Assembly (NCBI GenBank): GCA_964016885.1
Contig: OZ024760.1
Coordinates: 16,244,001-16,308,000 of the forward strand
From: Eledone cirrhosa
Taxonomy: Eukaryota
Direction: 5' to 3'
DNA: 64,000 nt
Shown here: positions 25,805 through 26,109 of the stretch, one piece after another
Layout: each line of letters starts with the position of its first letter
Numbering within the stretch: the first letter of the stretch is position 1
Program-made: the position numbers and the translations under genes
The notes under the pieces: model-generated
Databases searched by the model: none
What the model saw: only the letters and a program-made list of their open reading frames with translations
Told to the model about the DNA's origin: nothing

Positions 25805-26109
25805 AAGTAGGTCCTTCATCAGTGACCCTCCAACCGTCCCAGGCATTTCATCGCTTTAAGGGCCATATACCTCAGGTTGGTGCGAACAACGGCTAAAAAA
25901 AGTCGTTGGGACACGTAAATAAAGGGGACGTTTGTTCACCCTAACGTCCCCTTTATTTACGTGTCCCAACGACTTTTTTTAGCCGTTGTTCGCACCAACC
26001 TGAGGTATATGGCCCTTAAAGCGATGAAATGCCTGGGACGGTTGGAGGGTCACTGATGAAGGACCTACTTTTTCATATGTACCCCATTTGCAACGCGCAG
26101 CTCATTATT

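Follow-up and report, generated by a model that had tools for sequence, protein, structure and literature searches.

A predicted S-G-C hammerhead ribozyme with a split stem II in non-coding repeats of Eledone cirrhosa and in Naiad elements

Hammerhead copies in the 64-kb window

The window, that is the whole 64-kb stretch of Eledone cirrhosa DNA that was analysed, contains several copies of a small domain carrying the conserved words of a hammerhead ribozyme. An initial annotation had placed three copies and one mirror copy here, and all of them were found at those positions, with the mirror (25811-25912, minus strand) letter-identical to copy A (25963-26064, plus strand); a fourth, decayed copy at about 102-177 on the minus strand had been overlooked, however. 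The features are the following.

102..177, minus strand: fourth copy, decayed and 5′-truncated, of an older lineage (H), with the predicted site after 159 and CUGAUGA at 113-107
25797..25929, minus strand: inverted (fold-back) arm of the unit A insertion, bearing the identical mirror ribozyme at 25811-25912
25930..26128, plus strand: sense arm, a 5′-truncated insertion of the ~645-nt non-coding unit A that runs into (TA)n; 93-98% to the tandem unit in locus L055
25963..26064, plus strand: copy A, S-G-C hammerhead domain of lineage A
25963-25966, plus strand: copy A, 5′ half of the splint
25967-25988, plus strand: copy A, hairpin
25990-25993, plus strand: copy A, 3′ half of the splint
25995-26000 and 26040-26045, plus strand: copy A, clamp strands
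26004-26008 and 26029-26033, plus strand: copy A, stem III strands
26009, plus strand: copy A, A17
26010-26015 and 26047-26052, plus strand: copy A, stem I strands
26021-26025, plus strand: copy A, 11-side strand
26026-26029, plus strand: copy A, GAAA
26053-26059, plus strand: copy A, CUGAUGA
26060-26064, plus strand: copy A, 10-side strand
29525..29984, plus strand: 5′-truncated copy of the 531-nt non-coding unit B, with its (TA)n end ~70 nt past CUGAUGA; 98% to the tandem unit in locus L011
29815..29915, plus strand: copy B domain, predicted cut 29860/29861
60438..60761, minus strand: 5′-truncated copy of the ~525-nt non-coding unit C, flanked by (TA)n tracts
60508..60609, minus strand: copy C domain, predicted cut 60563/60562

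The blocks of the copies run, from 5′ to 3′, from a stem III strand, UA^ and a stem I strand through GAAA with its stem III strand to a stem I strand with CUGAYGA. The orders of types I, II and III are excluded, because none of the three copies has a GAAA within 60 nt 3′ of its core. Moreover, SGC, GCS and CSG are mutual rotations, and it can therefore be reasoned that neither tandem arrangement nor circularisation could yield a classical order. The cuts predicted between 26009 and 26010, 29860 and 29861, and 60563 and 60562 (the last counted on the sequence) agree with those proposed earlier, and comparison of the three copies by eye reproduces nine two-sided compensatory changes, four of them in the hairpin, three in stem I, and one each in a splint helix and the clamp. 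The annotated 8-bp hairpin is indeed present in the copies, but it contains an A·C mismatch in the 25963 copy and proves dispensable, with 2 nt in its place in lineages G and G2. When only nested folding is considered, copy A is no better than shuffled sequence (z of 0.11), and the other two copies reach z values of -2.76 and -3.56.

Further small (TA)n-linked repeats and fold-back palindromes with CUGAnGA words lie at 25500-25760, 37880-38010, 59890-59990, 60170-60330 and 10238-10244 of the window. In some of these, GAAA follows CUGAnGA in the classical order, and they are probably further Penelope-like tails or retrozymes. The window also holds a tandem array of about ten copies of an 81-nt unit at 33100-33950, with two frames open.

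Fold, covariation and relation to known hammerheads

The fold was described by five helices, namely stem I, stem III, a clamp and two splint helices. Stems I and III flank the hammerhead core, which includes the A15.1-U16.1 pair, and both covary. The clamp lies beyond stem III and has its partner 5′ of the site, while the splint is a strand upstream of the cleavage site that pairs with the strand before GAAA (the 11-side) and with the strand after CUGAnGA (the 10-side).

An exact pattern of the 3′ half has 13,130 matches in the 3.0-Gb genome, which is a lower bound for the number of copies, and the reversed-pattern control has none; patterns for older lineages gave 768 matches versus 0 reversed (partly variants of young lineages) and 120 versus 2. 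Among 279 distinct places, 196 were assigned to 17 lineages by motif rules, and the remaining 83, which are truncated or decayed, were left out of the consensuses, as was the memberless lineage D2. DNA searches scored 40 of approximately 1,440-1,580 candidates each, and the young lineages are recent, since identity to copy B is 100% for 29 of its 40 scored matches.

CUGAnGA, GAAA and U16.1-H17 are retained in all 14 scored lineage consensuses, whereas the letters of the helices vary, for example UGAUU/AAUCA, UUGUC/GACAA and CUGUC/GACAG in stem I, and CCAAC/GUUGG, CUGGG/CCCAG and CUACG/CGUAG in the clamp. Across the eight major lineages, cognate 5′ and 3′ halves score a mean of 22.4 out of 23, compared to 17.25 (maximum 21) for non-cognate halves, and the observed sum is reached by 1 of 40,320 reassignments. 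When the helices are reassigned separately, the corresponding figure is 1-24 of 40,320, in part owing to ties between identical strands, and shuffled 5′ halves never reached the score of their own lineage in 200 tries each. The core leaves almost no freedom in the registers of stems I and III; those of the clamp and splint are search-derived, and the far splint may be off in lineages H and I. For stem I, stem III and the hairpin, 20 real copies show 96% pairing and 53 two-sided changes, a count inflated by relatedness, while none of 500 shuffles is as good and slid registers pair at 27-52%. Covariation in a larger alignment, on which the annotated fold had been made to depend, is thus found in all five helices of the eight lineages, and the description of the domain as a non-circularly permuted, multi-pseudoknot hammerhead holds, with crossing helices that covary in two independent data sets, the second being the Naiad loci described below. 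Judged from its sequence, the domain appears to be a non-circularly permuted S-G-C hammerhead whose stem II is split and for which self-cleavage is predicted.

Direct pairing between the 10-side and 11-side strands amounts to 0-2 bp in all 17 lineages, which falls short of a canonical stem II, and two splint helices are found instead. The single pair to which stem II had been thought to shrink, 10.1-11.1, does covary in this genome (A-U, G·U, U-A and G-C), but it is missing in 3 of the 17 consensuses, and in the Naiad loci the partner of C11.1 is a splint G in 11 of 11 cases. The young lineages mostly have U or A at position 11.1 instead of C.

The block order itself was already named type SGC by Eckert et al. 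2023 (PMC10085705), so the order is not new, but the splinted stem II and the animal and Naiad setting are. As described in that source, type SGC hammerheads self-cleave in vitro; the examples it gives come from metatranscriptomes and none from genomes of known organisms. The present motif shares with type SGC (HRIMA-1 and the SGC variants) the S-G-C order, the core of CUGAnGA, GAAA and UH, the crossing helices and a short linker between the stem I strand and the stem II strand. In contrast, stem II is direct in the published type, whereas here 0-2 bp are direct and a splint pairs both strands; the partner of the extra helix lies 3′ of the core in type SGC, according to the oligonucleotides of that paper, and the clamp partner here lies 5′ of the site; and the published source is metatranscriptomic, unlike the >13,000 copies in animal genomic DNA. 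The published descriptor demands CGAAA, CUGAUGA(U)G and at least two further stem II pairs, and the authors assume that CUGAnGA remains joined to its stem II partner (PMC10085705). The motif is not filed as HRIMA-1, because it fails this descriptor and departs from this assumption. The minimal type I hammerheads of Penelope-like pseudo-LTRs (File S2, PMC8557442) resemble the motif in lying near the 3′ end of a unit and in having the same catalytic core, but they differ in their C-G-S order, their short closed stem II and a core without pseudoknots. The motif is a variant of a known ribozyme, and what is new is its link to Naiad elements and retrozymes.

The expectation that standard hammerhead searches would miss the motif was borne out. 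Rfam scans of two copies returned no hammerhead family, and the published SGC descriptor fits 0 of the 279 places in this genome. Similarly, 19 Naiad-type metagenome loci gave no Rfam ribozyme family, and none of 11 Naiad loci fits the SGC descriptor (direct stem II, CGAAA and CUGAUGA(U)G). In the literature searched, which included few subscription papers and no bioRxiv supplements, the motif is unreported in animals, retrozymes and Naiads, and no tested precedent of a split stem II was found there. An Rfam scan of the whole window returned microRNA-like matches on simple repeats, which are uninformative for the motif, and six matches in viral contigs are without the fold and chance-like. An exact short motif taken from the published octopus Naiad ribozyme has no match in this genome, and a single protein search was likewise negative.

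Naiad elements and the splinted fold

Naiads are Penelope-like elements that, as described by Craig et al. 2021 (PMC8557442), lack canonical hammerheads, some of them being flagged only as 'HHR_core' or 'HHR_half_core'; cephalopod Naiads are remnants according to the same source. A Naiad RT remnant of this genome led to relatives with Naiad hallmarks and from these to 39 metagenome loci, of which 30 were scanned (5 without an ORF end and 4 with <120 nt past the ORF were excluded), a locus counting as a pass if stems I and III of its S-G-C hammerhead together had 9 bp or more. The fold occurs 3′ of the ORF in 11 of the 30 loci, whereas the reverse strand has it in 0 of 30 and shuffles in 0.2; the 3′ regions of the other 19, several of them short, are without a passing motif. 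Direct stem II pairing is 0-1 bp in these 11 loci. The link between CUGAnGA and stem II appears to be broken, because C11.1 pairs with a splint G in every one of them; the base after A9 varies. In 10 independent loci each of the five helices covaries (0-1 of 100,000 random reassignments). Motif searches place a GIY motif, DKA and YxDD in order within one long ORF at five of the motif-bearing loci (L338, L342, L355, L357 and L359). In two others (L361 and L370), the hammerhead lies 1.2 kb past the match, and its tie to the ORF is less sure.

Inspection of the published Naiad consensuses by eye (File S5 of PMC8557442) points in the same direction. The splinted fold in S-G-C order was seen close to the 3′ end in two octopus Naiads, three from Acropora, one each from Clytia and Morbakka, that of Pomphorhynchus and one probably arthropod Naiad, so that octopus, coral, hydrozoan, cubozoan and acanthocephalan consensuses are represented, and weaker cases occur in two more. 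The window copies further resemble Naiads, as these are described in PMC8557442, in that they target (TA)n, are truncated at the 5′ end, have inverted 5′ arms and form partial tandems, and they share the RNA fold seen here in Naiad 3′ regions. However, Naiads encode an ORF with an N-terminal GIY-YIG domain, CxC, DKA and a C-terminal RT, whereas the window copies and their units do not. No Naiad-type RT motif was found beside the hammerhead in the 183 loci examined, and none of 10 regions of 1.4 kb downstream of Naiad ORFs in this genome carries the motif; the only one near a Naiad remnant here (L188) comes after a TA tract. Of 243 candidate Naiad RT matches in this genome, 150 were scored; they are old, share 29-83% identity with the query and mostly contain stops, and all four matches to a tight pattern of the DKA region are broken.

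Several related arrangements were noted among Naiads. Behind one Naiad-type ORF (L362:4625-4710) lies an S-G-C motif with a direct 5-bp stem II, a 5′ clamp and a weak stem I, which may stand between the published SGC form and the splinted one. In nematode Naiads of File S5 (PMC8557442), CUGAnGA as seen by eye comes first, followed by the site and then GAAA, and stem II is direct, that is type CSG, in three Nippostrongylus families and apparently three further records; Eckert et al. give only two examples of this type in PMC10085705. Another Naiad 3′ region (L366:920-1040) contains two CUGAnGA words with GAAA between them and does not pass the descriptor, and a partial SRP-RNA-like match of 42 bits (gathering score 70) lies upstream of a Naiad ORF at L342:347-487. 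Short internal repeats of unit A are present in antisense inside an old Naiad remnant of this genome (L189, G000:C3:276935000-276944999).

Carrier units and their mobility

The domain is carried by units of 531 nt (B), 525 nt (C), 630-645 and 737 nt (A-like) and 584 nt (D), with tandem spacings of 502-806 nt and a nine-unit array on contig C1. No coding sequence is found in complete tandem units, which close on themselves and have one hammerhead each; the longest ATG frame in four units is 32-169 aa, without a match to the tested Penelope-like protein, and the young units are mutually homologous (68-84% over long stretches). Four units have a GC content of 0.39-0.44, are pyrimidine-rich and, as circles, are modestly more structured than shuffles. 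The copies are 5′-truncated, often have an inverted 5′ arm and run into (TA)n, which are traits common to other Penelope-like clades. Among 37 occurrences of unit B, 22 stop 71 nt past C3 in a TA tract and 9 run into the next unit. The domain, for which self-cleavage is predicted, had rightly been tied to a Penelope-like lineage, but the copies are non-coding, often tandem units and not the ends of coding elements.

In these respects the units resemble the non-LTR retrozymes described by Cervera and de la Pena 2020 (PMC7229834), which are likewise non-coding, form tandems from monomer to multimer, have a GC content below 50% and a single hammerhead per unit, and show kinship to Penelope tails. 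However, a type I hammerhead is the defining trait of non-LTR retrozymes in PMC7229834 and in the preprint of Li, Clavereau and Pollet 2026 (10.64898/2026.07.22.740005), whereas the hammerhead of the present units is S-G-C and of Naiad origin. They are also longer (500-800 nt versus the ~170-400 nt of the 2020 retrozymes) and pyrimidine-rich, and, while retrozyme circles are highly self-paired, the four units here are only modestly above shuffles.

The reading that we consider likely is that the motif is a self-cleaving split-stem-II S-G-C hammerhead that derives from Naiad 3′ tails and rides in this genome on non-LTR retrozymes of 500-800 nt, its cleavage being predicted. The domain would most likely cleave after H17 as an ordinary hammerhead. 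In the Naiad form, the helix between the splint and the 11-side may act as stem II under A9·G12, with the chain exiting A9 into the second splint helix. The junction of the young lineages in this genome seems to have been reshaped, leaving a single direct 10.1-11.1 pair. If the units behave like the retrozymes of PMC7229834, cutting of tandem transcripts at UH^ would release RNAs of unit length, which would be re-joined into circles. A trans-acting Penelope-type RT/endonuclease would then start synthesis where an AU-rich stretch, tens of bases beyond the ribozyme, is annealed to a nicked (TA)n tract, and copying would proceed through the re-joined site. The weakest step concerns the helper, which is probably another, active Penelope-like family because the Naiads found here are decayed. 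A point against the predicted cleavage is that, of nine predicted Xenopus retrozyme dimers, only one cleaved (10.64898/2026.07.22.740005).

The 5′ ends of the copies bear on this scheme. Among 95 occurrences sampled by their 3′ half, 85 reach 5′ past the predicted cut, therefore the template was presumably uncut or re-joined RNA. Only three events in the 95 occurrences end within 3 nt of the cut (one locus, L292, was dropped on inspection); they include a fold-back centred on it, and 5′ ends there are not clearly enriched over TA microhomologies. In the AUC^ lineage, 3 of the 5′ ends at the 24 places listed are at the cut, compared to 7 at a nearby TA microhomology. A fold-back palindrome at L209:612-729 has its centre exactly at the predicted cleavage site.

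The same read-through, without a pile-up of 5′ ends at the site, would also be expected if the fold were real but its chief role were that of a structural signal to the RT at the 3′ end, or if it cleaved only as a domain-swapped dimer of tandem neighbours, with poor activity of monomers. The near-fixed distance of the domain from the 3′ end, as in the 22 of 37 unit B occurrences that end 71 nt after C3, fits such a role, and the dimer variant has precedents in some minimal Penelope and amphibian hammerheads, dimer-dependent cleavage being documented for axolotl retrozymes (PMC7229834). Nevertheless, a pure signal would not need the CUGAnGA/GAAA/UH register to be kept across phyla while the helices are rewritten, and every helix can be closed inside one 102-nt domain; we therefore regard this alternative as unlikely. 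Slightly less probable still is that the units are truncated 3′ tails or pseudo-LTRs of an autonomous, still active Naiad-like element whose ORF was missed. Such a parent would be in keeping with the motif being a feature of Naiad tails in the metagenome loci and with the 5′ truncation and inversion typical of Penelope-like insertions, and the DNA searches scored only 40 of each ~1,440-1,580 candidates; it is opposed by the complete tandem units that close on themselves, by the 183 loci without a Naiad-type RT motif beside the hammerhead, and by the stops in most Naiad RT matches.

It is very improbable that the pairings arose as a side effect of how the repeats evolved, for instance by fold-back duplications and satellite turnover, with the hammerhead words there by chance. 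The window is rich in fold-back palindromes and the nested fold of copy A is no better than that of shuffles, which would fit this explanation, but it is contradicted by the covariation of crossing helices in two independent data sets and by the reversed patterns, which have 0, 0 and 2 matches against 13,130, 768 and 120.

Beyond this genome, we think it more likely than not that Naiads across animal phyla and the retrozymes derived from them use an active four-block hammerhead in which CUGAnGA is no longer joined to stem II, a link assumed to be unbreakable, and C11.1 finds its partner in a distant splint. This would extend the permutation rules of hammerheads, which are the best studied among small ribozymes, because the three-block model pairs the strands after A9 and before G12 with one another, a pairing replaced here by a fourth strand. 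If true, non-circular hammerheads would be abundant in animal genomes and not a rarity of metatranscriptomes, and the reported absence of hammerheads from Naiads would be explained, type I descriptors and Rfam being blind to the rearranged form. That Naiads spread well yet 'lack canonical hammerheads' is a published puzzle that now becomes directly testable. A biological setting for non-circular hammerheads in animal genomes would also mean that hammerheads and retrozymes are undercounted in genomes, and a splint that can be supplied separately would be a natural switch for RNA engineering.

An abundant Penelope-like family with a C-terminal endonuclease is present in this genome (6,692 candidates, 150 scored, the top matches with 92-98% protein identity). 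As an autonomous parent of the units it was rejected, since it has no DNA or protein similarity to six of them and its tail motif, which is minimal type-I-like, differs. At one place (L023 / L091:3545-3565), two unit B copies are fused 5′-to-5′, without a spacer, to a truncated ORF of a Penelope-like element that lies on the opposite strand, and both sides of the fusion have a (TA)n tract of their own as their end. The abundance of the family and this single fusion weakly suggest an active helper; at other loci of the family the motif is nearby in 2 of 29, which is near background. The type-I-like tail core of this family (L091:3560-5370, L094-L123) reads CAGUUGA, not CUGAnGA, in 18 of the 18 copies listed.
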